Positions 17,264 through 33,116 are shown, numbered from the stretch's first letter. The stretch: DNA of 64,000 nucleotides from Acidobacteriota bacterium (GCA_965209055.1 OZ242374.1:1792001-1856000), one strand, 5' to 3'. Numbers and translations are program-made. Notes: a model not told the origin generated them from the letters alone.

Positions 17264-17340
17264 CGGGACGTGGCGCAGTCTGGTAGCGCACCTGAATGGG
17301 GTTCAGGAAGTCGGGAGTTCGAATCTCCCCGTCCCGACCA
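17264..17340 (+). tRNA. tRNA-Pro(GGG); island integration site
   Basis: CGGGACGTGGCGCAGTCTGGTAGCGCACCTGAAT-GGG-GTTCAGGAAGTCGGGAGTTCGAATCTCCCCGTCCCGACCA; TGcTATACT extended -10 at 17238-17246. Confidence 0.97.
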
Positions 17341-19662: not shown

Positions 19663-19737
19663 CTAGGAGAAATATCGAGAGAACCTGAAAATTATGCGTT
19701 CAGAGGGGATGTGTTGGATCGGCGATGCTGGACTAAG

Positions 19738-21764
19738 CGGAACTTCACTGCCCCCCAAACCCTAGCAAATCATTGAAATAGCGCCGGTTACGGTTCGCTA
19801 GACTCACTCTATAACTGGATATTTGTTTCCATGTATGGGATCGGTGTGTTTGTCAGTATTATCCTGTATCATTTGCATATCAGTGCTCATTACTGTTTCC
19901 ATGTAAGAGGTCGCCTCCCCATGTCCTACCACGTCGATGTCATCCCCAACCGCAACAGCCCCCCTGCCATCCTCTTCCGCCACGCCAAACGCGAGGGCAA
20001 ACGCATCCGCCGCACCACCCTCGCCAACCTCTCCAAGCTCCCCCCGGAGATCGTCGACGGCATCCGCGCCCTGCTCAAGGGTGGTCAAGTCTTCCACCCC
20101 CTGGACGACACCCTCTCCATTCGCCGCGCCCTGCCCCACGGCCATGTCGCTGCTCTCCTCGGCCTCGCCCGCCAACTCGGTCTGACACGCCTCCTGCACC
20201 GCAACCGCAGCCGCAACCGCGACCTCGCCCTCGCCGCCATCGTCGCCCGTGTGCTGGATCCCGCTTCCAAGCTCGCCACCGCCCGGAACCTGTCTCCCCA
20301 GACCGCCACCACCAGCCTCGGCCCGCTCCTCGGCCTCGGGCCGGTCCACGGCAACGAGATGCTCGGCATGCTCGACTGGTTGGTTCGCCGCCAAGTCTGG
20401 ATCGAGAAGAGCTTAGCGCGACGGCATCGGCCGGACCCTGCTGCTTTACGACGTCTCCTCCAGCTATCTGGAGGGACGCTCCTGTCCTCTGGCCGCGTTC
20501 GGCCATAACCGGGACGGCAAGAAAGGCAAGCCCCAGATCGTCTTCGGTCTGCTGTGCGCCGAGGACGGCTGCCCGCTGGCCGTGGAGGTCTTCTCCGGCA
20601 ACACAGGGGATCCGAAGACGGTGGCGTCGCAGGTCGAGAAGATCCAGGGGCGTTTCGGCATCGAGTCCATCGCCTTGGTCGGGGACCGCGGCATGCTCAC
20701 CACGGCGCGGCTGCGCGAGGATCTCTCACCGGCCGGACTGGCCTGGATCTCGGCCTTGAGAACCGACGCCATCCGCAAGCTGATGCGGCCGTCCAAATCG
20801 GGCACTGAAGGGGATCAGCCGGCTCCGTTGCGGCCGGGCGAGTTGGTTCCGGACCGGGTCGCGGAGATCCTCAGCCCGGAATTTCCCGGAGAACGCCTGC
20901 TGGTCTGCCTCAATCCCCGCTTGCGCCAGGACCGCGCCCGCAAGCGCGAGGAACTGCTGAAGGCGACCGAGGAGATTCTGGAGACGATCGCCAAGGCTGT
21001 GCGCTCCCCGAGATCGCAGCTGCGCGGCCAACAGGCGATCAACCGCCGGGTGGGCCGGGACGTGAACCGCAAGAAGGTCGCCAAGCACTTCCGGATCGAG
21101 GTGAGAGACGACGACATCCGCTGGTCCAGGAACCAGGAGAAGATCGACGCGGAGGCTCAACTGGATGGCATCTACATCGTGCGCACCAGCCTGGCGGCCT
21201 CCGAGATCGGGGCCTCGGAGGCGGTGGAGGCTTACAAGAGTCTCTCCCGGGTGGAACGGGCGTTTCGCTCGCTCAAGACGGCGCAGCTGGCCCTGCGCCC
21301 GGTGTACGTCTACAGCGAGGCCCATGTGCGCGGGCATGTCTTTCTGTGTCTGCTGGCGTATTACCTGGAGTGGCACCTGCGGCGAGCCCTGGCGCCGCTG
21401 CTGTTCGAGGAGGAGGATCGGGCCGGGGCGCGAGCGCTGCGGAAATCCCCGGTGGAAAAAGCGCAGGTGTCCGAGCGCACGAAGGCCAAGGCCTCGCGCA
21501 AACGGACCACTGACGGGCTCCCGGTGCAGAGCCTCCGGACGCTGCTGGCGAATCTCGGAACGCTCACCCTGAACCAGGTGGCTCTGCCGAACGCCCCGCA
21601 GCATCCGTTTGCGATGTTCGCCAAGCCGACGCCGGTGCAGGCGAAGGCTTTCGATTTGCTCGGCGTGGATCCGACCCGATTTGTTGCCAGTAAATGGCCA
21701 GGTTGATTTCTTCTATCTTCCTGATAGAGAAACAGTTAGACCGACTACCCGAAGTGAAGTTCCG
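19738..21764 (+). mobile_element. IS1634-family insertion sequence
   Basis: IR CGGAACTTCACT (19738-19749) / AGTGAAGTTCCG (21753-21764), flanked by ACTAAG direct repeat (19732-19737, 21765-21770). Confidence 0.88.
19921..21706 (+). pseudogene. IS1634 transposase, frameshifted near 20428
   Basis: VIPNRNSPPAIL, RTTLANLS; second frame LLYDVSSSYLEG..GHNRDGK..VGDRGML..DGIYIVRT..YKSLSRVERAFR. Confidence 0.88.
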
Positions 21765-22131
21765 ACTAAGGGGTTGCCTGGGTTTTGGCTTCTACGCTAT
21801 CCAGGCTCTGCCGGTGTACCGCGGCGGATCAGGAATTTTTCGGAATAGACTCAACGTGATTTCCGGTCCGCGAACTCCAGACCTTGAGCGATAGGAAAAA
21901 CGCGATCCTGATTCCGGACCTCGGCCGGGGTTTCGTTTGTTTCCTGGGGGTGTGGAGACAAACGTCGTTCGCTGGTGGTGTCCTATTATGAATTTTCAGG
22001 CGGTAGCGGGGATTTTGGTACGGAGTGTGCTTGACAGGGGCTGATGAGGCCACCGCATGAACAAAATTCAAGTCTGGACGCTACTTGGTAGTGTCCGGAT
22101 ATTGGGACCGTGCAGAAAATTTGACCCCGGA

Positions 22132-22542
22132 TTACTGACTTCGCAGGTATTGCTCGGGGACAATCGGTTCTGGGAGTCGGCGCTTCTTGGACCTGGCAGC
22201 CAGTTCTTGCTGATACCCCCACCAATCTTTTTCGTTTTTAGGCCATCCAACTATGTTGGAATGCCCTGGCGGGTCATCGTCATCGTCTATGTCAAGTCCG
22301 CTTTGGCAAACGTCGGAGCGGGTCAATTCACCCCATCCATAGAGACGTTTCGCATAGCGTTGTTCCTGGACGACTCTGAGTCCCTCCTCGATGATCTCCT
22401 GGTCAGACTTGCCTTCAGTCCTGTAAACAGAGAGTTCGTGATTCTTATTTGGTTTGAACAGTCGAGGAGGGGGATGAGAGGTCCGGGACTTTATTTTGTT
22501 TCTCTCGACCGCGTATCGGGCGAGTGGAGTGTCTGATGCCAT
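22132..22542 (-). CDS. Hypothetical protein, candidate ART/RES-like toxin
   Basis: LARY...FKP...ELSVYR...DDDPPGHSNI pattern; third gene of a tight operon; function inferred. Confidence 0.55.
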   Translation of the reverse strand: MASDTPLARYAVERNKIKSRTSHPPPRLFKPNKNHELSVYRTEGKSDQEIIEEGLRVVQEQRYAKRLYGWGELTRSDVCQSGLDIDDDDDPPGHSNIVGWPKNEKDWWGYQQELAARSKKRRLPEPIVPEQYLRSQ

Positions 22543-22569
22543 TCAGATTTGCTCCGAATCCGAAACAAC

Positions 22570-23193
22570 TTATCCACACACTTTGCGGATCAAGTCCAGA
22601 ATGGACTCGGGAATCTTCTTCGTCCACGGTTCTGAGCCCTGTCCTTTTTCCCCTTGCATCCAGTAGGCGAAACCAATCTCTCCAGAGGAGAGAATACCGA
22701 TGTCCAGCATTACACGGTCTCTTGGAGTCCATTCAAACTCGATGGAGCCAAACGGGGTAGCACCGACGTAGAGATCTTCGTCGAGGGCTTCCTCGGGCAG
22801 TTGCTTGATGAACGAACGCGCAGTCTTGACTGTTTTAAGAGTAACCCGATCCGCGCCTTCTCCATCCCAGTTGTCCTCTTCACAGTTTCGTTTCAGTTGA
22901 TTGACCTCCTGGAGAATTCGTTGCCGCTGATCTGGAGGGTCGCTCACGTTGTGAGTTGGCCTGGGTGTGACGTTCGATATGGGGGACATTCCCGTGCCGC
23001 TTTCGTAATGGGGTCTTGAGAACGCGCCGGTATCAGAACTACTTGTGGGGACCTGGGCACCAGTAAGGCTGATGAAGAGCAAGGTAACCGGCACAGCTGA
23101 GGCCATCAATGGCGTGATAATGCGACGCCGGTCGGATCCAGTGTCAGTGTACTTGGACTGGTCGTTGGAGTAGATCCTCTGTGGGTCGTTCAT
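22570..23193 (-). CDS. Hypothetical protein with NWDGEGA...TPFGSIEFEW domain, candidate antitoxin
   Basis: ATGA overlap with upstream gene; low-complexity N-terminus with hydrophobic patch; compact C-terminal domain. Confidence 0.6.
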   Translation of the reverse strand: MNDPQRIYSNDQSKYTDTGSDRRRIITPLMASAVPVTLLFISLTGAQVPTSSSDTGAFSRPHYESGTGMSPISNVTPRPTHNVSDPPDQRQRILQEVNQLKRNCEEDNWDGEGADRVTLKTVKTARSFIKQLPEEALDEDLYVGATPFGSIEFEWTPRDRVMLDIGILSSGEIGFAYWMQGEKGQGSEPWTKKIPESILDLIRKVCG

Positions 23194-23558
23194 TGTATCG
23201 TGCTTCCTCCGTTGTCCTCACTGAGTTCCTTTTCCTTTTTGGCGTCAGGCATGTGTCGCTCCAGCCACGGAATAAGAGACTTCGCCACGGACGGACTGAG
23301 TATGATTTGCACTTCGGCTTCTCGAACGAACCCCTTTCTGGAGTCCCTTGAAATTTCAGGTCCGAGTTTCCCGTCAGGCCTGAGTTCGTGAACAACACGC
23401 TTGGGCATTGGTGAACGCTCGGAATAGAAAATCATTGCAATCGAGCCGCTTGGGGTTTGTCCACCCCATGCTCCATCCGCGTGAATCACACGGAAGTTGT
23501 TAGATTTGATGAAGTGGAAGTCAACTTTGTTACTCGGCAGCCGTTTACGTCGTGCCAT
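23190..23558 (-). CDS. Conserved hypothetical protein (DUF3467-like)
   Basis: FRVIHADGAWGG.TP.G.I...FYSER...REAEV.I.LSP..AKSL..WL; GGAGGA RBS before ATG 23558. Confidence 0.65.
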   Translation of the reverse strand: MARRKRLPSNKVDFHFIKSNNFRVIHADGAWGGQTPSGSIAMIFYSERSPMPKRVVHELRPDGKLGPEISRDSRKGFVREAEVQIILSPSVAKSLIPWLERHMPDAKKEKELSEDNGGSTIQ

Positions 23559-23763
23559 TCTTTCCTCCGCGTGGGTGAGCGTTGCGCCCTTGCCCTTCAC
23601 ACTCAAGACACAAGCGATACAGTTGGTCTCTCAACGTGGATTATAAACTTGCGCTGACTTCTTCTCCAGTACGACATCCTTCATTGACGATCAATTTCAT
23701 CCCCTAGATTCTATACATCAGGATGGAATCGCGTGAAGGTAGCGGCCCGGAATCCATAGGCGA

Positions 23764-24543
23764 CTAACCCGGTAGCAACTGGTCCACCGTCCAAATCGAC
23801 CCCGCCAGTCCCGCCTCCATCGCCGGAGTGCAAGAGAGAGTTCCATGGATGCGGCCGAAGTTGTACCAGAAGAAGTGCAGAGAAAGGGACGCTCGTAGGT
23901 TCTCCAGCTTCTTCGAGAAGCACAGCGTCTTGCGATTCAGGCGGCGGACGAAGTTTCTCAGCGTCAGGTTCTGACGCTCAATCAAGCTGGTGGACACATC
24001 CATGCGTTCCATCCTGCCCATGATCGGGTAGGGCTTGATCCAGGCCGTGCCGTGGCCGAACTCCTTGGTCATTTGGGTGTAGTCCACATCGGCCCCAAAG
24101 ACTCGCTCCACGGCATCAATATAAGCATCCAGGGCGTCCGTGACAATTCTCGGCCGACCGATGATTCGCTCCTGCAACCGGTACATCAACCGATGGGCAA
24201 CCTCCGTGGTGCGTTTCCCCAGGGCGAAGGCCGGGATGAGTTTGGTGTCCCGGTCCATGGCAATGAAGATCCACTGGCTGCCGACCGTCTCCGGGTCCGT
24301 TGATGTTACATGCTTGTCCTTCTTGGCGACGAAAGACCATGCCTCATCCACTTGGACGACCGAGGGCCTGAAACCGCGAATGTGTTCTCGGGAGAGTTCG
24401 TCGCAGTGTTTTCCGGTGCGGACCATGAGCCGCATGATGGTGTCTCGGTGGTTTCCGGTCAGCCGCTCCACCGAACGGATGGAGCAGCCCTCCAGGAGCA
24501 TGTGGATGGCGGTTTTCTGCTTTTGCGGTGAGAGTCGATTCAT
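23764..24543 (-). CDS. IS1-family DDE transposase, single ORF, apparently intact
   Basis: HTH LLEGCSIRSVERLTG; VQVDEAWSFV, IVTDAL, IERQNLTLR, FSKKLEN, IHGTLSCTPAMEAG. Confidence 0.9.
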   Translation of the reverse strand: MNRLSPQKQKTAIHMLLEGCSIRSVERLTGNHRDTIMRLMVRTGKHCDELSREHIRGFRPSVVQVDEAWSFVAKKDKHVTSTDPETVGSQWIFIAMDRDTKLIPAFALGKRTTEVAHRLMYRLQERIIGRPRIVTDALDAYIDAVERVFGADVDYTQMTKEFGHGTAWIKPYPIMGRMERMDVSTSLIERQNLTLRNFVRRLNRKTLCFSKKLENLRASLSLHFFWYNFGRIHGTLSCTPAMEAGLAGSIWTVDQLLPG

Positions 24544-24636
24544 TGTGACTTGACCTGCGCCCTGGCCAAGTCGCACAATGGTGTGGATCAGACACTCAGT
24601 CGTTCAGCGCAACTGGCTTGGGTGGCTTGAGAGTGC

Positions 24637-24664
24637 AAGGCCGGGAGTTGCCGCTCCCGGCCTT
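24637..24664. promoter_or_regulatory. Perfect hairpin upstream of transposase (terminator/attenuator or antisense target)
   Basis: AAGGCCGGGAG-TTGCCG-CTCCCGGCCTT. Confidence 0.55.
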
Positions 24665-24670
24665 ACTGTT

Positions 24671-25150
24671 TCAGTTAGTTTCCTCTACTCTTCTCCTTCT
24701 TCTTCTGACTCGTCGCGGTCTGTCCCAATGCGGCAACCCCCATTTGTTGTTGTGCAGGACGACCCTGGGATTCTCCTTGCTCCGCTCATTGGAGAGAGCG
24801 GTGGAGAACACTCGGCTGGGATTCGCTGACGTGGTTCGTACTCCGTCTATCAACGCCATCTGCGTCAGGTCCTGGATGGGCATCCATTGGTTGGCCGCAT
24901 CCAGCAACGCGACCAGACGGTCAATAGTGTTCTTGGTTTCGTCTGAGACCCCCTTTTCCAGAGAGAATAGGCAGGCCCGCAGTTCGCCGTCAGAATTGGT
25001 CTTGATTTCCGAAATGAGAAGGGTTACCTGGTCCCATGCGCCATCATGTTTCTCCTTGAGGTCCTTGATGAGGGCGATGTGAATCTGGATTTGCTCCCGG
25101 AGTTCCCTCACTACCTCGATTCGCTTTTGGAGTTCTTCATACTGATCCAT
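24671..25150 (-). CDS. Coiled-coil plus HARE-HTH-like winged-helix protein
   Basis: GGGAGGAG RBS; MPIQDLTQMAL..GV.T.SANP...FSTAL......RVV......WGL.HW resembles HARE-HTH; Arg-rich tail. Confidence 0.55.
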   Translation of the reverse strand: MDQYEELQKRIEVVRELREQIQIHIALIKDLKEKHDGAWDQVTLLISEIKTNSDGELRACLFSLEKGVSDETKNTIDRLVALLDAANQWMPIQDLTQMALIDGVRTTSANPSRVFSTALSNERSKENPRVVLHNNKWGLPHWDRPRRVRRRRRRVEETN

Positions 25151-25269
25151 GGACACACTCCTCCCGTTTGACACGGACTTCTCGGCCGGATAGGATCAGG
25201 GAACCACTTGATTCGTGACGCACAGTGGGAATCGGCTAGCAACCAATGTCCACCGTGGCGTCTGGCGTA

Positions 25270-25345
25270 TGAGGGGGGCGGCGGGTATTGACCCCGCGAC
25301 TTCCCGGTTAGCAGCCGGGTGTTCTATCCACTGAACTACGCCCCC
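25270..25345 (-). tRNA. Atypical tRNA-like gene, anticodon GCT, short variable loop
   Basis: GGGGGCG-TA-GTTC-AGTGGATA-GAAC-A-CCCGG-CTGCTAA-CCGGG-AAGTC-GCGGG-GTCAATA-CCCGC-CGCCCCC-C-TCA; all four stems perfectly paired, T-loop and CCA deviant. Confidence 0.8.
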
Positions 25346-25408
25346 TTAATACTCTTCATCAATTGTTCCCAAGCGATCACCTCACCGCGGTTCCAATTGT
25401 CAGGCAGC

Positions 25409-25437
25409 ATTCTACTTTTTTTGGTGGCCTGCGTCAA
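25409..25437 (-). promoter_or_regulatory. Sigma70 promoter for tRNA-like/HTH transcript
   Basis: TTGACG-17 bp-TAGAAT on minus strand. Confidence 0.7.
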
Positions 25438-25479
25438 TGCTGCTACGAAAAAATCTGTCAGGTAGATTGTCGTGTGATT

Positions 25480-25524
25480 AGCATGGATAGCATGGTCAGC
25501 ATGGATAGCATGGTCAGAATGACT
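25480..25524. repeat. 9-bp tandem repeat x5 between divergent promoters
   Basis: AGCATGGAT-AGCATGGTC-AGCATGGAT-AGCATGGTC-AGAATGACT. Confidence 0.8.
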
Positions 25525-25567
25525 ATCAAGAGACTAACAAATACGGTTTTCGTAGCGTGAAATCGTC

Positions 25568-25596
25568 TTGACAGTTTCACCCCGCCTTTCTACAAT
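25568..25596 (+). promoter_or_regulatory. Sigma70 promoter
   Basis: TTGACA-17 bp-TACAAT. Confidence 0.8.
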
Positions 25597-25601
25597 CCTC
25601 A

Positions 25602-25767
25602 CCGTCGTTATCCGCAGCAGGCTCCTGTGTCGGGCCTCCTGCTGAATAGAACAGTCCATATACCCAAGGACCGGGTAGCTCCCGGCCCTTATGGACGAAC
25701 AGGCGGGTATTCCTACAGCCTTGCTGCGAGATGACGACGGGCCCGACTCCTGAACAATGGTCGGGCC
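25602..25767 (+). ncRNA. Candidate structured RNA / leader
   Basis: Starts at predicted TSS; 25602-25623 pairs with 25717-25740; apical stem GTCCATA..AAGG.CCGGG-TAGCT-CCCGG.CCTT.TATGGAC; following hairpin GGCCCGAC..GTCGGGCC. Confidence 0.55.
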
Positions 25768-25860
25768 GTTCGCTCTGTGTCGGCGTGTGAGTCAGCCCAG
25801 CGGTGATTTGAGGCTACTGGGAAACCTCCCTGGCGCAGGGCCCTCGACAAGGAGGTGCCT

Positions 25861-26382
25861 ATGGCCACAAAGAAATCCAAATTCATCAACACCAAGGTTG
25901 CCGGCGTCACCTTCGCCAACGACGACGGCACCCAACGCCAGGACATCATCAAGGGCCTCACCATGGGGGAGCAGGTACTCCTGGTTCGAGACCATGACAA
26001 CGAGCATGACTTCTATGCGGTCCAGGTACAGACCACGGAAAAGGAGGTCATCGGCTGGGTGCCCCGCACAAAGACTCCTCAGGTAGCAACATGGATAGAC
26101 GGTGGAAGGCTTGCGGTTGGCATGGTTGCCAGCCGGGGGAAGGCACGGGGGAAGGACCTTGTTGGTATCAACATTGATATCATGCTCGTGGAGGAGGGGG
26201 ACCGGAGATGGGTGGAGGACTTTCTTCAGACGGGTGATATTGAAGGGGCGCAGCGTCGGGAGAGAAAACGGATTCGGAGAGAGGCAGAAGCGGAAAACAG
26301 CGGCTGTCTACCAAGTCTGCTGATCGTGTGTGCCATCCTCACCCTTGCCGCGGCCTGCGGCCTCGCCATGCTCGGACGGTAA
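25861..26382 (+). CDS. HIRAN domain protein with C-terminal membrane anchor
   Basis: TKVAGVTF, LVRDHDNEHDFYAVQV, IGWVPR; hydrophobic C-terminus; AAGGAGGT RBS. Confidence 0.85.
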   Translation: MATKKSKFINTKVAGVTFANDDGTQRQDIIKGLTMGEQVLLVRDHDNEHDFYAVQVQTTEKEVIGWVPRTKTPQVATWIDGGRLAVGMVASRGKARGKDLVGINIDIMLVEEGDRRWVEDFLQTGDIEGAQRRERKRIRREAEAENSGCLPSLLIVCAILTLAAACGLAMLGR

Positions 26383-26487
26383 CCGCGCAAATTAGGACAC
26401 TACCCGTTCGCTCGATTGAATAGTACCGGCTCTCTTGACATGATACACTGACCAGTCGCGAGAGGCTACCTAGGCCGGACGTTTCGG

Positions 26488-27132
26488 ACCCAAGTGGCAA
26501 GGGCTTTGGAACGGTTGGGCATCGTGTTGATCTTAACGCACTCGCGCCAGCCGCGGGACCGTGCGCGCGGATGTTCGGGACGTGGCAGAGCCGGTTACCG
26601 CAGGAGCTGCGGCTGGGGGGATTGGAACCCTGGAGGAGGTAGACTGGTTCCCGTGGAAGGATTGAATCGGGTTTGCCGATCGGTGCTTCACGACGAAGCC
26701 GGCCGAAGCGGTAACGGCGTCTACTCCGGCTGACGGGATCGATCTGGACAGAAACCTCTCGCATCAGGAGATTCGGGTCGCGGGTGTGGTCAACACGGTG
26801 CGGTACCGGCGGGGGGTGCTGCAGATCGAATCCCTGAAGTTCCGCACCAGCCTGGCAAAGTTTCGGGCGTTGGTGTGTGAGCATCTGGATGGGAGTTTGA
26901 GCCTGTACCATGGAGTTCGCCACCTGGGACGGTAGGACCGGCAAGGATGGTTGTTGCACGAGGGGGTCGCATGAAGGAGGCGGGGTGGAGATCCGGATAA
27001 GCCCTGGGGAGCGTGTAGCTGTCCTGGCCGGAAGATCCTCTGATGGCCAAAAGGCGACGCAATTGGGGCCAGTTGTTACTGACCGGACAGATTTCGTGTC
27101 AAAAATCCGATCAACTTGACGTGCAAATGACA
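26488..27132 (+). pseudogene. Degenerate IS1202-group (ISNCY) transposase with right end
   Basis: Fragments TQVARALERLGI, RMFGTWQSRLPQELRL, NTVRYR, VCEHLDGSLSLYHG; end ACCGGACAGATTT...CCGATCAACTT...TGACA. Confidence 0.75.
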
Positions 27133-27353
27133 GACTCTCTCGCTTGGTGTGGCCACAGAACCTCTTCGGTGCCACGTTCTTGTCCGGGGAACATCTGGAG
27201 TAATGACAAGAATAAGGTATCGTGTCGGTATTGGCATGGTACTATCCCAAGCGGCGCCGTGGATGCTTGCTGGTTCTGTGTGAATCAGCAAAATTCCTGA
27301 AGAATTTTTTGGGGGAATGTCGGCGTCGCTTTTAGTATTAGGAGGAAAGTCAA

Positions 27354-30300
27354 ATGCTAAGACACACGGTCAGTGGGTTCGCCTCAGTTTGCGACGTTTT
27401 CAGAAGAGATATTTTTTTCTGCATCAGGAGGGGCTTTCTCCCCCTCTTGGCGGCAATGCTGCTCGCTGCGCCGCAGTTGGCGTTCGCGAACGGTCTGTCC
27501 GTGACCGTAAATCCCGGGTCGTTGGATCTCACCGAAGGAGGAAGTACCGGTGAATACACGGTGGTTCTGGACGATGCGCCAGAGGAGGACGTTGTCATAG
27601 AGGTGGTGGGTGTCGACGAGGATGTCCTGACTGTCAGTACTGCCACGCTCACTTTTACTGCCGACGTTGGAGATACCGAAGGCTCCTGGAACACCGCCCA
27701 GACCGTTACAGTGACGACCGTCGAGGACGACGATGCTGCGGACGAAAGGATCGTCCTGACGCACACAGCGAAGATGGGACGCCGTGACGCCGTACCACTG
27801 GCGGCGGATACTTCCGTGGTTGTGAGAATCACGGACGATGACACAGCTAACAAACGCGTGATCATCTCGGAGACGGAAGCGACCGTCCCTGAGGCGGGCG
27901 TGGCCGATACCTATACAGTGACCCTGGGAACCCGGCCCACGGGGACCGTAACGGTGGACGTCGGCGGTGTAACGGGTGAGCTTTCAGTCAGCCCTTCACG
28001 TCTGGTTTTCAGACCGGGGGATTGGAGAGACGGAGCCGGGAGTGCTATTACGCCGGCCGCGAAGACGGTTTCGATCTTTGCGGGCAATGACTTCGACGCG
28101 GACGATGACAAGGCCACCCTGACACACAAGGTGAGAGGTGGGGATTACAGCAACGTACGAGCAGGGACGGTCGAGGTGACGGTTGACGACGACGACACAC
28201 GACGTATAACGGTCGTTCCAGCCTCGTTGAACGTAGCGATAGAGAAGAGTGGAACCTTCACGATCAAACTGGACACACAACCGAAGGGGACGGTGACCGT
28301 TCTGGTGGTAAAGGACCCGAGCAATACGGATGCCCAAGTCAGGGTGAGTCCCAGCAGTGTGAGATTTTCGACCGGCGACTGGAATCGACCGAAGACGGTA
28401 ACGGTCACGGCAGGGTCATCGGCTGTCGCCGGTTCCGCGACGGTGGATCTGAGTGTGGACGCATCACCGAAAAATCGGGACACGGACTACACCACTACCG
28501 AACTATCTTCTGCGACTGTCGGGGTAACTATTTCGGACGCGCTGCCCTCGGAGACCGTAACACTGACTAGTTTCCCGAGTCTCGTGGAGGAAGGGTCGAC
28601 AAAGGAGTACACCGTTAAATTGGACAGGAATCCCAGTGTGGCGACCCGGACCGTTTACGTGACCTCCTCAGATACCGCCTCCGTCACTGTGGCACCGGCC
28701 TCATTGGATTTCACCCAAGATCCTGAGGGCACAACAGACGGCACATGGAGAACGTCTCGGACTGTAACCGTCACCGGCGTACGGGATGGCGACGCGGTGG
28801 AAGAGACCGTCGTCGTGGCCCATCGGTTTACTTCAGCAACTGGACCCATTGTCAGAACCTCAACAGTGAGGGTTGACGAACTGAATACGCGCGGCGTGTC
28901 GGTCTCCAGAACCGAACTGGAGGTCAAGGAGGGTACGAGTAACACCTACACCCTCACTCTGGACTCTGACCCGGTTGGCGGGCCCGTAACGGTGACGATC
29001 ACCGCATCCTCAAACCAGGTCACCATCAGTCCCTCTCAGGTGACATTCACGAGTCAGGGGGTTTCGGAGACGGTGACGGTGACTGCTGTTGGAGACGAAG
29101 ATGCATCAGCAAACCCCTCCGTCACCTTGAGTCACAAGGTCCGTGGTGCTGTTGGGGACTACGACAACTTCTCGGTGAGTAACGTCAAGGTGACGGTCCC
29201 GGAGGCCCAAAAAACCGGCATCGAGATTATGGGCCAGCCGGCGAGCATGACTGAGGGAACCAGTGAAACGTACGAAGTTCGTTTGACGGCCCAACCAACG
29301 GGAACCGTGACGGTTCGGATACGTAGCGACTCCGATGACGTGACCCTGAGACCGTCCCAGTTGAGGTTCACGACCAGTAGTTGGAATCAATATCAGACGG
29401 TCAGGATCAGAGCCGAACATGACGCCGATGCGGACGACGACCCGGAGGTGACGTTGACGCACATCGCGAGTGGAGGCGGCTACGACCAGGTGTCGAAGGA
29501 AACCCAGCTGGACGTCATGGAAGACGATGTGTCCCAGAAGGGTGTACGCGTAAGTCCAAGTGCATTGACGATTACCGAGGGTGGATCCGAGAGAAGGTAC
29601 ACGATCAATCTCATGACCAGACCTACGGCAACCGTACGGGTACGGTTGGGAGTTGACCCGTCTGACGCGGCACCCAGAATTCAGATAAAACCGAATCAGA
29701 TGACATTCACTCCGGACAATTGGAATGTTCCGGTGACGGTGACGGTAAGTGCGCCAGAGGACCACGTTGACCAAGGTACCCACACTGACGTGGACGTAAC
29801 CCACACACTAAGCGGTGGCGGCTACGACGACCAGGCGCCTACTGTAGATGTGAGAATCAGAGACAACGACGAACGGGGTGTCACCCTGAATCCTGTGGAA
29901 TTGGAGGTCGTTCAGGGCTTTTGGCAGGAATACACCGTAAGACTGGATTCTCAGCCTGCTTCAACTACTGCCGGCGCCCCCGTTGTAACAATCAGTCCGA
30001 CAAGAGGTGTTACCGGTGTGACGGTGAGTCCGGGAACGTTGACCTTCACGGCATCAAATTGGTCCTCTCCACAGAAGGTAAGGGTCAGTGCCGGGGACGA
30101 CGCTACGCCGGGCACAGGGTCTGTGACACACACGGTTGCCGCAGCAGACACCGACTACAGTGCTGAATCGGCTGGCAGTGTGGCCCTTGACATCAAGGAC
30201 AACGCCGTGGATGGCGTCGCCGTAAGTCCAACCGTACTGGAGGTTCTGGAAGGGACCAGTGAGTCTTACACCATCGTGTTGACGCAGAAACCTGATAAGA

Positions 30301-33116
30301 ACGTCTCCATCAAGATATCTGGAGCCGCCGACGATGTCAGCGTGAGTCCCAGTTCCATGACCTTTTCAACGACGAACTGGAGCAAAGAGAGAAAAGTGAC
30401 CGTAAACGTCCGTTCGGACGACGATGGAAGCGACGACCCTCCAATAACTCTTACACACGAGGTCACCAGCGAGGACACCGAATACGATGGTTTAGTCCCA
30501 TCGCCTGTCACGGTGACACCCAAAGACGATGATCCGCTTGGGGTCACGGTGACACCCACGTCCCTGACCGTCGCGGCGGGTTCACTTGGAACCTATACCG
30601 TCAAGTTGGACACCCAGCCGTTGGATGCGGTAACCGTGGCTGTGAACGACCCCCCATTGGAATCCATAACCGTCGAAGGTGCCCCACTGGTCTTCACGAC
30701 AACCGACTGGAAAACCGCACAGACGATCACGGTAAAGGTCGACAGGGATGGTGGGGAGGACAACGAACAGACGGTCACGTTGACCCATACCGTGTACGGT
30801 GGAGACTACCCAGGGGACGGAGATGTTCCGTCCGTAACCGTGATCATCCCGGTGGAGGGGGCACCGAGTGCGCCCAGGAACCTCAGCGCGGCAGGCGGCA
30901 ACGAACGAGTCACGTTGAGTTGGGAAGCTCCTGCGAACGACGGGGGTTCCTCAATCACCGGCTATCAGGTCCGTTACCGAGTGGCCGGCACTGAAAACTA
31001 CGGTTCTTGGAGATCTGTGACTGGAACCAGTACTACCGTCACCGGGCTGGACAACGGTACGTCCTACCAGTTCCAGGTTCGAGCGGTCAATGGAACCTCG
31101 CCGGGACCACCGGCGGAGACGACCGAGACACTGGCGAATTCAGCCCCGGGAGCGCCTCCGGGATTGACGGCAACCGGTGGTGACGAGAGCGTCACGTTGA
31201 ACTGGAGTGCACCGGAAGACGGTGGCTCTCAGATTATCCGTTACGAATACCGGTACGCCGCGACGGGACAGACGTTCAGCGACTGGGAAACCGTCAGTGG
31301 TGGCGGAAACGCGACGAGCGTTTCCGTCGACAATCTGACCAATGGTACCGAATACGGATTCCAGGTCCGGGCGGTGAACCAGATCGGCGAGGGCCCGCAT
31401 GCCAGCGCCAGCGCGACGCCTGGGAGGGTGCCGAGCGCGCCGACGGGACTGACGGCGAAATCCGAAAGCGAAACGATCACCGTGATGTGGGGAGCGCCGG
31501 CCGACAACGGCGGCTCCGCAATTACCAGCTACCAGGTGCGCTACCGCATGAACGGTAGTAACTGGAGCAACTGGGCCACGGTGGCGGGCGGGGCAAATGC
31601 CACCAGCTACATCCTGACCGGACTGACCAACGGGATCGGCCATGAAATTGAGGTCAGGGCGGTGAACGCCATAGGTTTTAGCGCCGCTGCCTCAGTCGAG
31701 GCCACGCCCATGGCGGGCATCGACTTCGCCCACTTTGCCAACGGTACATCAGGTGGAGTGACCATCACCTCCGACATTGTGTTGGTGAATGTGGAGACCT
31801 CCGCAGTGACGCCGGCCATCTACTTCTACAACCAGCAGGGCGACATGATCGACGCCGATTCGGTGGTGGATGTGTCCGCAGATATGGAGGTTGCAGGCGA
31901 CGGCGCCTTGACCGTTCCCATGGGAATCCCGCGCCGAGGCGAAATGACAATTTCGACCAACGGCGACGGCGCCCTGGTGGTCGGATCGGTGAGAGTCTTC
32001 GGTACTGGCCGCTTGGGAGGCGTGCTGCGCTTCGAAATCCCATCCGTCGGTGTGGCGGGTGTGGGAGTCAGCGAGCCTGTCAGCGACGCCATCTTCCCGG
32101 CTCGGCGGATGGCGGGTGGCATCCGCACGGGCGCGGCGATTCGAAACCTCAACGCCGACGCCATGACGATCAACTGCATGCTGATGCAGGACGGTGAGGT
32201 GATGGATACGGCCACGGGTGAGTTGAGTGGAGACGGCCATGTTGCCCTGTTCATCGACGAGATGTTCCCGGGTTCGAATACGACCGACTTTGTAGGATCT
32301 GTGCGCTGCACAGCCGACGATGGGATGTTCGCAGGAGTTGCATTGGAAATGGATCTCGCCAACGGGATCTTTACCACGCTCCCGCTGGTGTCCCTGGACA
32401 CTGGCGCCGATAGCGGCGGATCAATGATGTTGAACTTCGCGCACTTCGCCAACGGCGATTTCGGAGGAACGGCAACGAGTTCCGACCTGGTCTTCGTCAA
32501 CGTGGCCACCTCGGCGGTGGCCCCGGCCATTCACTTCTACGATCAGGACGGCGAGATGATCGCAGCCGATATGGTCGTGGATGCGATGATGGAAGGTGTT
32601 GAGGTCGGCGAAGACGGCGCTCTGACGGTCACGGACGAGATCCCGCCCATGGGCGAAATGACCATCTCCACCAGTGGCATGGGCGACGGCATAGTCGGCT
32701 CGGTAAGAGTCGTCTCCGACGGACCCATCGGCGGAGTCCTCCGCTTCGACATCCCCAACATCGGGGTCGCCGGAGTGGGTGCAAGCAAGGCCGTCAACGC
32801 CGCCATCTTCCCGGCCCGCCGCATGGCGGACGGCATCAACACCGGTGCCGCCATCCGCAACCTCATGCCGGACATGACGATGGTGACCTGCCGCTTGATG
32901 GCGGGAGGACAGAGGATGGGCGAGGCGTCGATCCCTCTGGCCGGCAATGGCCAGAACTCCCAGTTCATCAACGAGATGTTCCCGAACGCCAACACGGACG
33001 ACTTCGAAGGCTCGGTCCACTGCGCCGCGTCAGGGTCGATGTTCACCGGCGTGGCTCTGGAGATGGACTTCAACAACGGGATCTTCACCACCCTCCCGGT
33101 GGTATCGGTGCAGTGA
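27354..33116 (+). CDS. Giant secreted surface protein: 10 Calx-beta/Ig-like repeats, 3 fibronectin type III domains, 2 tandem C-terminal FAHFANG domains
   Basis: GGAGGA RBS, signal peptide ending AFA; repeats V.P..L...EG....Y...L...P...FT..NW...LTH; PSAP.L.A....VTL.W..P.DGGS.I..Y.YR. Confidence 0.88.
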   Translation: MLRHTVSGFASVCDVFRRDIFFCIRRGFLPLLAAMLLAAPQLAFANGLSVTVNPGSLDLTEGGSTGEYTVVLDDAPEEDVVIEVVGVDEDVLTVSTATLTFTADVGDTEGSWNTAQTVTVTTVEDDDAADERIVLTHTAKMGRRDAVPLAADTSVVVRITDDDTANKRVIISETEATVPEAGVADTYTVTLGTRPTGTVTVDVGGVTGELSVSPSRLVFRPGDWRDGAGSAITPAAKTVSIFAGNDFDADDDKATLTHKVRGGDYSNVRAGTVEVTVDDDDTRRITVVPASLNVAIEKSGTFTIKLDTQPKGTVTVLVVKDPSNTDAQVRVSPSSVRFSTGDWNRPKTVTVTAGSSAVAGSATVDLSVDASPKNRDTDYTTTELSSATVGVTISDALPSETVTLTSFPSLVEEGSTKEYTVKLDRNPSVATRTVYVTSSDTASVTVAPASLDFTQDPEGTTDGTWRTSRTVTVTGVRDGDAVEETVVVAHRFTSATGPIVRTSTVRVDELNTRGVSVSRTELEVKEGTSNTYTLTLDSDPVGGPVTVTITASSNQVTISPSQVTFTSQGVSETVTVTAVGDEDASANPSVTLSHKVRGAVGDYDNFSVSNVKVTVPEAQKTGIEIMGQPASMTEGTSETYEVRLTAQPTGTVTVRIRSDSDDVTLRPSQLRFTTSSWNQYQTVRIRAEHDADADDDPEVTLTHIASGGGYDQVSKETQLDVMEDDVSQKGVRVSPSALTITEGGSERRYTINLMTRPTATVRVRLGVDPSDAAPRIQIKPNQMTFTPDNWNVPVTVTVSAPEDHVDQGTHTDVDVTHTLSGGGYDDQAPTVDVRIRDNDERGVTLNPVELEVVQGFWQEYTVRLDSQPASTTAGAPVVTISPTRGVTGVTVSPGTLTFTASNWSSPQKVRVSAGDDATPGTGSVTHTVAAADTDYSAESAGSVALDIKDNAVDGVAVSPTVLEVLEGTSESYTIVLTQKPDKNVSIKISGAADDVSVSPSSMTFSTTNWSKERKVTVNVRSDDDGSDDPPITLTHEVTSEDTEYDGLVPSPVTVTPKDDDPLGVTVTPTSLTVAAGSLGTYTVKLDTQPLDAVTVAVNDPPLESITVEGAPLVFTTTDWKTAQTITVKVDRDGGEDNEQTVTLTHTVYGGDYPGDGDVPSVTVIIPVEGAPSAPRNLSAAGGNERVTLSWEAPANDGGSSITGYQVRYRVAGTENYGSWRSVTGTSTTVTGLDNGTSYQFQVRAVNGTSPGPPAETTETLANSAPGAPPGLTATGGDESVTLNWSAPEDGGSQIIRYEYRYAATGQTFSDWETVSGGGNATSVSVDNLTNGTEYGFQVRAVNQIGEGPHASASATPGRVPSAPTGLTAKSESETITVMWGAPADNGGSAITSYQVRYRMNGSNWSNWATVAGGANATSYILTGLTNGIGHEIEVRAVNAIGFSAAASVEATPMAGIDFAHFANGTSGGVTITSDIVLVNVETSAVTPAIYFYNQQGDMIDADSVVDVSADMEVAGDGALTVPMGIPRRGEMTISTNGDGALVVGSVRVFGTGRLGGVLRFEIPSVGVAGVGVSEPVSDAIFPARRMAGGIRTGAAIRNLNADAMTINCMLMQDGEVMDTATGELSGDGHVALFIDEMFPGSNTTDFVGSVRCTADDGMFAGVALEMDLANGIFTTLPLVSLDTGADSGGSMMLNFAHFANGDFGGTATSSDLVFVNVATSAVAPAIHFYDQDGEMIAADMVVDAMMEGVEVGEDGALTVTDEIPPMGEMTISTSGMGDGIVGSVRVVSDGPIGGVLRFDIPNIGVAGVGASKAVNAAIFPARRMADGINTGAAIRNLMPDMTMVTCRLMAGGQRMGEASIPLAGNGQNSQFINEMFPNANTDDFEGSVHCAASGSMFTGVALEMDFNNGIFTTLPVVSVQ

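Follow-up and report, generated by a model that had tools for sequence, protein, structure and literature searches.

A class I tRNA with a serine anticodon and an arginine-type D arm in an insertion sequence-rich islet of an Acidobacteriota genome

We found that the window, by which we mean the whole stretch of 64,000 nucleotides of Acidobacteriota DNA analyzed here, contains a genuine, structurally intact class I tRNA gene that combines the anticodon GCU with a D arm of the arginine type (Table 1). Judged by its sequence, the gene is not a tRNA-Ser of the bacterial type, and the label tRNA-Ser that annotation pipelines would be expected to assign to it is almost certainly wrong. Our preferred explanation, which we put forward tentatively, is that the GCU tRNA is an anticodon-shifted and attenuated derivative of a mobile-element tRNA-Arg(YCU) and is weak or null in translation.

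Table 1. Features of the GCU tRNA locus, in window coordinates
Feature	Coordinates	Strand	Basis
tRNA gene, class I, 73 nt, anticodon GCU, A20, G54, C73	25273..25345	-	ARAGORN, Rfam RF00005 and minimum-free-energy fold
3' trailer UCA, CCA not encoded	25270..25272	-	Sequence
Putative sigma-70-like promoter, TTGACG-17-TAGAAT, about 60 nt upstream of tRNA	25409..25437	-	Consensus scan, 10/12 matches
9-nt tandem repeats, 4 to 5 copies (TGGATAGCA/TGGTCAGCA), directly upstream of promoter	25475..25519		Repeat family D1
314-nt cassette (trailer, tRNA, leader, promoter, repeats); 165 other letters in its place on relative's contig	25205..25518		Read-contig comparison, run X5
ORF159, conserved hypothetical protein, 122 nt downstream of tRNA	24671..25150	-	SD-like GGGAGGAG before ATG
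GC-rich hairpin over ORF159 stop codon, no T run	24628..24673	-	Inverted-repeat search and sequence
IS1-family transposase gene, single copy in genome, directly downstream	23764..24576	-	Pfam DDE_Tnp_IS1, 7e-13
HIRAN-domain protein, divergent, context only	25855..26382	+	Pfam HIRAN, 5e-9

ARAGORN called a 73-nt tRNA with anticodon GCT at 25273-25345 on the minus strand, and the Rfam tRNA family RF00005 matched it over model positions 1 to 71 with a score of 65.5 bits (E value of 5e-12), above the gathering threshold of 29 and level with the scores of the window's housekeeping tRNA-Val (66 bits) and tRNA-Pro (63.9 bits). Both the gene caller and the covariance model, which the original prediction had proposed as checks, thus return a tRNA, and the match extends over a full cloverleaf. 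The acceptor stem (GGGGGCG/CGCCCCC, with GGGGGCG at positions 1 to 7) is followed by U8 and A9, the D stem (GUUC/GAAC) encloses the loop AGUGGAUA with G18, G19, A20, U20a, and A21, and A26 precedes an anticodon stem of CCCGG/CCGGG with the loop CUGCUAA. The variable loop is AAGUC (5 nt), the T stem (GCGGG/CCCGC) carries the loop GUCAAUA, with G at position 54, and the 3' end consists of C73 followed by UCA (25272-25270). The base preceding G1 is A, and there is no G-1. All 21 stem pairs are Watson-Crick, and the cloverleaf is the minimum-free-energy fold (-36.6 kcal/mol, 65% of the ensemble, z of -2.7); among 200 shuffled sequences, one folded equally well. Read directly from the sequence, the tertiary core is canonical at U8, A14, G15:C48, G18, G19, A21, U33, G46, G53:C61, U55, C56, and A58. 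Its sole exception is position 54, which is nearly always U in tRNAs and is G here. The UCA end is unremarkable, because CCA is likewise not encoded in about 15 ordinary host tRNA genes, among which are three for tRNA-Arg, two for tRNA-Thr, and those for Tyr, Phe, and Lys. The perfectly paired cloverleaf of the original prediction was therefore borne out, as were its readings of the anticodon, the 5-nt variable loop, A20, the T loop, C73, and the UCA end, to which we add the strand.

Bacterial seryl-tRNA synthetase (SerRS) depends on the long variable arm of its tRNAs. The host encodes a canonical tRNA-Ser(GCU) of 92 nt with a long arm, G73, and CCA, together with a single SerRS that has the usual N-terminal arm domain. 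The GCU tRNA studied here lacks both features that mark this canonical gene: its 5-nt variable loop is not a class II long arm, and it has C73 in place of G73, which Table 3 of a review of identity elements gives as a serine feature (PMC9976931). Service by SerRS is unexpected because there is no long variable arm. These observations agree with the original prediction, which had recognized a serine anticodon on a body of another identity.

To classify that body, we compared it with the bacterial arginine identity set as tabulated by Giegé and Eriani in 2023 (PMC9976931), which comprises A20 as the main element, C35, U/G36, A/G/U73, G2-C71, and C3-G70. The GCU tRNA has A20 (an A aligns to model position 20), C35, U36, and G2-C71; it lacks C3-G70, and its C73 falls outside the arginine discriminators (A or G, in some cases U), the host's own tRNA-Arg having G or A. 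Its anticodon is not one that reads arginine codons (NCG or YCU), as G34 makes it GCU, which pairs with AGC and AGU. GCU differs from UCU and CCU at base 34 only, and this base lies outside the arginine identity set. The host has one arginyl-tRNA synthetase (ArgRS), with N-terminal D-loop-binding, catalytic, and DALR domains. The D-loop end GGA(U/C)A is common to all five host tRNA-Arg, but A20 also occurs in host tRNA-Ala.

The strongest evidence for an arginine-type body comes from comparison of the D arm. The 19-nt D-arm string, GTAGTTCAGTGGATAGAAC, had at least 116 exact matches in viral contigs, and 104 of the 116 matches listed lie in tRNA-Arg (91 UCU, 9 CCU, and 4 ACG); the others are one tRNA-Asn, one tRNA of undetermined type, and 10 uncalled matches. 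The listed matches represent 60 distinct sequences, among which the acceptor stems are of many kinds. Among 105 listed phage tRNA-Arg with an identical D arm, the discriminator was A in 63, G in 42, and C in none, position 54 was T in 102, G in one, and unassigned in two, and G34 was not found. The arginine-like body of the original prediction therefore stands on A20, C35, U36, and the D arm, and falls short at the discriminator, as C73 is outside the reported arginine set.

No source gene close in sequence was found. The highest identity to any tRNA was 77%, with a phage tRNA-Arg(UCU), and within the genome the values were 72% to tRNA-Asp and 71% to tRNA-Arg(UCU). We therefore rejected a recent paralog of a host tRNA, for which within-genome identities of at most 72% are too low. 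By the same comparisons the GCU tRNA did not arise by a recent point mutation from any tRNA found, and the stems have diverged yet remained perfectly paired; a simple recent mutation of a canonical tRNA-Arg, which the original prediction had named as one of the outcomes that would overturn it, was thus checked and did not emerge. Other parts of the molecule resemble other tRNAs. A Pseudomonas phage tRNA-Asn agrees at 43 of the 49 positions from 8 to 56, which span the D and anticodon arms. The acceptor and T stems are similar to those of an Erythrobacter phage tRNA-Gly(GCC), and the exact string of anticodon stem and variable loop had a single match in viral contigs, within a tRNA(CAU). The arginine ancestry would therefore rest mainly on the D arm and is not airtight.

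We did not find the GCU tRNA in any other genome searched, nor any tRNA more than 77% identical to it, across relatives, about 400 genomes of the phylum, phages, plasmids, and pattern scans of species genomes and metagenomes. In 40 relatives, which include one unpublished genome (G016) that adds a negative only, full-length matches reached at most 73% identity, and all seven loci examined were tRNA-Asp. A pattern combining the arginine-type D loop with CUGCUAA matched one of 401 phylum genomes, namely, the host itself. Nucleotide searches (blastn) of phages and plasmids returned five phage records and one plasmid record, each of them either a partial match or, over the full length, no more than 77% identical. 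In viral sequences, a pattern of anticodon arm plus variable loop gave two loci, which we rejected as canonical long-arm tRNA-Ser genes in tRNA arrays; a loop-only pattern of 14 bases gave at least 120 matches, a number in line with chance; the D-loop-plus-GCU pattern gave six loci and no intact tRNA, five being one acceptor-less tRNA-like sequence and one a chance match; and none of the 52 matches to a 15-mer of the T arm lay within a tRNA. Scans of metagenome contigs with loop patterns yielded no match and then one chance match that was not a tRNA.

The full region was present solely in sequencing runs X1 to X4, which derive from one sample, are identical to the window, and may be its source; no RNA run was among those listed as carrying it. 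A fifth run (X5), from another organism, contains a 1,365-nt contig on which a homolog of ORF159 (37 differences over 555 nt) occurs together with the sequence that follows the tRNA cassette, starting at 25519, and on which the 314 nt of the cassette itself (25205-25518) are swapped for 165 other letters. In a genome of the same genus (G005), about 510 bp separate the homologs of 23263-23530 and 25592-26205, and the interval between them contains no IS1 gene, no ORF159, and no tRNA. An integration-site origin was considered and rejected, the only partial copy of the tRNA elsewhere in the genome being a distant 22-nt match of 91% identity at 3241182-3241203.

On the minus strand, the order of features is the 9-nt repeats, the promoter-like site, the tRNA, a 122-nt gap, ORF159, the hairpin, and the IS1-family transposase gene. 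The TTGACG/TAGAAT promoter named in the original prediction is indeed present as a promoter-like site upstream of the gene, with 10 of 12 consensus matches. A consensus scan of the 1-kb region gave three promoter-like sites against 0.5 expected, and the one upstream of the tRNA was the sole site found on the minus strand. The tandem repeats are possibly an operator. Six metagenome homologs with 59 to 87% identity indicate that ORF159 is a real gene. It has no family match at curated thresholds, its AlphaFold model is of low confidence (pLDDT of 62) apart from a long N-terminal helix, and its C-terminal region may, on faint resemblance, be a HARE-HTH-like winged helix. No relatives of ORF159 were found in viral contigs. 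We also considered it as a synthetase-like partner and rejected this as noise, as a Seryl_tRNA_N match appeared in one of seven homologs only, at 19.5 bits (below the cutoff of 28.2) and amid coiled-coil matches. A terminator scan gave nothing at the GC-rich hairpin, and no terminator-like site was found in the gap between the tRNA and ORF159. The IS1-family transposase scored 76 bits against the NCBIfam model transpos_IS1, under the cutoff of 100, and blastn found no second copy of its gene in the genome. The divergent HIRAN protein matches the PADLOC PDC-M03B candidate models in its HIRAN part alone. Apart from this match, domain and defense system searches recognized no nuclease, toxin, or defense gene near the tRNA, and no synthetase domain was found in the neighboring open reading frames.

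The GCU tRNA lies in an islet of low GC content (52 to 60%, versus about 65%) located after tRNA-Pro(GGG). The islet is rich in transposase genes, with an IS5-like gene, a 2-kb insertion sequence, the single-copy IS1-family gene, and an IS3-type HTH; the 2-kb element (19734-21765) encodes a DDE_Tnp_1 transposase and is present in six genome copies of about 98% identity. The 3' 49 nt of tRNA-Pro(GGG) (17292-17340) recur with 96% identity at G000:C1:1247749-1247797, about 560 kb away and without a tRNA call, possibly as an old copy of an attachment site. Also in the islet region, about 450 bp within a doubtful open reading frame (26484-26931) are 69 to 78% identical in several genomes of the same genus and have a second copy in the host genome (G000:C1:5095126-5095446); the stretch may represent a small gene, an RNA, or the remains of an element.

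AGA/AGG-rich mobile DNA is the usual setting for a carried tRNA-Arg(UCU). AGA and AGG together account for 9 of 18 arginine codons in ORF159 and 39 of 86 in the giant fibronectin-III (fn3) gene of the islet, as against 7 of 54, 5 of 76, 3 of 35, and 1 of 25 in four core genes. Across window positions 22000-33116, islet genes use AGA/AGG and also AGU far more than core genes do. The giant fn3 gene encodes a 1,920-amino-acid fibronectin-III repeat protein, contains 24 AGA, 15 AGG, and 41 AGU codons, and has a partial paralog elsewhere in the genome with 83% identity. The islet is rich in AGA/AGG, and an ancestor with a UCU or CCU anticodon would therefore have been useful there.

Short-arm GCU tRNAs were also sought in one genome per bacterial species, using the pattern TCAG, 1 to 3 nt, GGATAGARY, 6 nt, CTGCTAA. 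This gave 69 matches at 68 loci, with about 13 expected by chance according to a hand estimate. Forty-nine of the 69 lie in ARAGORN-called tRNAs of 73 to 79 nt with anticodon GCU, and 20 are uncalled; none of the 68 loci is a close match to the GCU tRNA of the window. Many of the pattern-matched GCU tRNAs stand at places where a tRNA-Arg is expected or have damaged acceptor stems. Three of them form a syntenic trio with conserved flanks (L151:4979-5054, L183:2903-2977, and L200:7463-7540), from metagenome-assembled genomes labeled Bryobacteraceae, Bryobacterales, and Solibacteraceae. They are of the arginine type, with a GGAUA D loop, and although their T, acceptor, and D stems have undergone compensatory changes, GCU and A73 are retained in all three. 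Across seven related GCU tRNAs, 14 of 21 pairs have double changes. The trio and the seven sequences were selected by pattern, and the conservation of their D loop and anticodon is partly by construction. In 40 other genomes of the family of L151, no GCU ortholog was found, and tRNA-Arg(ACG) alone matched. Arginine-type GCU tRNAs, with 49 called genes and a syntenic trio, thus recur sporadically and were kept through speciation at least once.

Several irregular tRNA-like sequences came to light in the course of these scans. Five viral contigs (L208:2420-2454, L209:277-311, L210, L211, and L212) share a nearly identical sequence, in two variants one base apart, with an arginine-type D arm, a GCU loop, a normal T arm, and no pairing acceptor stem, which ARAGORN did not call; similar forms occur in Flavobacteriaceae genomes (L162 and L171). 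Outside the window, the host genome has a second irregular cluster of three tRNAs on one strand at L388:270-574 (equivalent to G000:C1:2737869-2738173), with Rfam tRNA scores of 55.4, 51.3, and 47.8 bits and an adjoining IS1595-family transposase gene. Two of the three have Leu-type bodies with a long arm and A73, and the anticodon that results from their 7-nt loops is AGA, matching a serine codon; the third is Gly(GCC)-like with an irregular anticodon stem. ARAGORN also called six 88-nt tRNA-Leu(UAA) genes without encoded CCA in the approximately 65% GC host genome (G000:C1 477237, 1381642, 1991443, 2104898, 2524782, and 3018716). These may travel on repeated or mobile DNA, because two of the copies are identical, including their flanks.

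According to our model, the gene would have originated as a tRNA-Arg decoding AGA/AGG, of the kind carried by phages and other mobile elements, and would now be the first gene of a small promoter-tRNA-ORF159 unit inside the islet. A change of the wobble base from U or C to G would have turned its anticodon toward AGC and AGU. Arginine would be its sole plausible charge, because the ArgRS determinants A20, C35, and U36 are kept, position 34 is unread, and there is no long arm for SerRS. Both C73 and G54 are missing or almost missing from tRNA-Arg that share this D arm, and they would be expected to impair charging and the function of the T loop. The RNA is presumed to be transcribed, processed, and provided with CCA as are the host's other CCA-less tRNAs, and the outcome would be a former tRNA-Arg that the cell tolerates and does not use.

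Some observations do not sit easily with a decaying or inert gene. Every stem pair is intact and the score equals those of housekeeping tRNAs, so that nothing points positively to decay, which argues against a relic. The promoter-like site and the upstream repeats suggest regulated expression, which would argue against an inert gene. Moreover, three departures fall at conserved unpaired positions (34, 54, and 73) and none at the 42 stem positions, a distribution with a probability of about 0.03, (20/62)^3, by a rough hand estimate. This pattern is mildly suggestive of a somewhat non-random process and could equally mean selection for a new role. The original prediction had held that perfect stems argue for selection on structure; the estimate lends this weak support.

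A more active role is conceivable. The GCU tRNA could be a functional and possibly regulated mistranslator, charged by ArgRS through A20, C35, and U36 and inserting arginine at AGC and AGU, with C73 and G54 tuning the effect to a tolerable level and the repeats and the DNA-binding-like ORF159 controlling its timing. The arginine determinants and a standard host ArgRS, the intact cloverleaf and tertiary core, and the promoter-like site with its repeats are all consistent with this reading, as are the recurrence of short-arm GCU tRNAs with arginine-type D loops (49 of 69 matches), the trio that keeps GCU with compensatory changes, and the precedents of tRNAProX and the allo-tRNAs (PMC11415595 and PMC5389517). 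Nevertheless, we consider it unlikely. An efficient arginine-inserting GCU tRNA would be costly, because AGC and AGU make up 16 to 22 per 1,000 codons in the four core genes checked and efficient Ser-to-Arg replacement would hit most proteins. In addition, no dedicated synthetase, editing factor, or second ArgRS was found, C73 lies outside the arginine set as reported in PMC9976931, and the gene occurs in no other genome searched and is swapped out in a relative. The absence of a long arm and the single, ordinary SerRS also weigh against charging with serine by an unusual route, one of several ways in which the tRNA might receive another amino acid. Histidine has been considered on account of C73, which in the host is otherwise confined to tRNA-His; but host tRNA-His has both G-1 and C73, and the GCU tRNA has A before G1 and no GUG anticodon. 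Partial identity might point to Gly or Asn, given acceptor and T stems like those of phage tRNA-Gly(GCC) and an anticodon arm like that of phage tRNA-Asn, or to Thr, and AGU is common in the giant gene of the islet (41 codons); however, U73, C2:G71, and C36 are missing for Gly, and U35 and G73 for Asn. The identity sets applied in these exclusions come in part from PMC9976931. Charging with an amino acid other than arginine is, on this evidence, very improbable.

The RNA might instead serve outside translation. It could be an RNase P/RNase Z processing module that determines where the ORF159 mRNA starts at its 5' end, or it could act in regulation or as a decoy. The tRNA and ORF159 are separated by 122 nt on one strand with no terminator-like site between them, and the only minus-strand promoter-like site found precedes the tRNA. 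G54 and C73 deviate at positions used in translation, a non-translational role has been proposed for irregular tRNAs linked to transposons and toxin-antitoxin loci (PMC5389517), and the second irregular cluster of the host also adjoins a transposase gene. But ORF159 is independent of the tRNA cassette, because the relative represented by run X5 keeps it without the cassette, and the nucleotides of the anticodon loop and core are fully kept, beyond what a processing signal needs. With the HIRAN match excepted, no nuclease, toxin, or defense gene was recognized nearby, which leaves the anticodon nuclease decoy of the original prediction unsupported. We regard a non-translational role as unlikely, and return to the attenuated tRNA-Arg derivative as the reading that we prefer.

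Codon reassignment and encoded mistranslation draw on genes for tRNAs in which body and anticodon conflict, and few such cases have been documented in bacteria. The split AGN box is a weak point of the code, in that ArgRS recognizes exactly the two anticodon bases shared with the serine half. One wobble change could yield an arginine-accepting reader of serine codons, because ArgRS reads A20, C35, and U36 and not base 34. In a mobile tRNA-Arg(YCU), such a change might thus open an undescribed route to encoded mistranslation by an AGC/AGU decoder, here perhaps as switchable Ser-to-Arg diversification or as a toxic payload, by way of the repeat-flanked promoter and a possible DNA-binding partner; we consider this quite unlikely. 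Full-text literature searching listed no report of a bacterial tRNA with an arginine body and a serine anticodon. If charged and used, the GCU tRNA would be the first natural Ser-to-Arg mistranslator in the literature so searched. If inert, it would exemplify the neutralization of an acquired tRNA whose anticodon shift is harmful.

Among known systems, the tRNA-Arg(UCU/CCU) genes of phages and mobile elements share with the GCU tRNA the 19-nt D arm including A20 and U20a (tRNA-Arg in 104 of 116 listed matches), C35, U36, A37, a 5-nt variable loop, class I size, and carriage in horizontally acquired DNA that uses AGA/AGG. In contrast, the gene described here has G34 for U/C34, so that AGY and not AGR is read, C73 (0 of 105 listed), G54 (1 of 105 listed), and an overall identity of at most 77%. 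A bacterial example of tRNA remolding was reportedly described by Saks et al. in 1998. As in alloacceptor anticodon shifts, a single anticodon change would explain the GCU tRNA (PMC4783518); however, a remolded tRNA adopts the new identity, whereas here the arginine identity would be expected either to persist or to disappear, and the host retains its resident tRNA-Ser(GCU).

Hybrid tRNAs known to bring about encoded mistranslation include tRNAProX, paired with ProRSx, and the allo-tRNAs (PMC11415595). Like tRNAProX, the GCU tRNA is an accessory gene whose body and anticodon differ in identity (PMC11415595), but it has no adjacent dedicated synthetase, the host has one ArgRS only, and U33 and G34 replace the A33 and A34 that characterize tRNAProX. 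Its mismatch lies at the one anticodon base that ArgRS ignores, within the split AGN box, and it forms no conserved family. With the irregular tRNAs and allo-tRNAs of Acidobacteria, as described by Mukai et al. in 2017 (PMC5389517), it shares an anticodon-body conflict, transposase neighbors, and a doubtful use in translation; one irregular tRNA in that report, likewise with GCU as its anticodon, was charged by neither GlyRS nor ThrRS. It differs from this group, whose allo-tRNAs have 8/4 or 9/3 structures and a long arm, in its 7-bp acceptor stem, 5-bp T stem, 5-nt variable loop, and lack of an E-loop, in having C73 instead of U73, and in being a single gene instead of part of a polycistron. 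tRNAscan-SE 2 flags isotype-anticodon conflicts of this sort, which its description treats as unusual and probably non-functional, though not necessarily pseudogenes (PMC8450103). The GCU tRNA is a further member of the identity-mismatched accessory tRNAs, a known kind.
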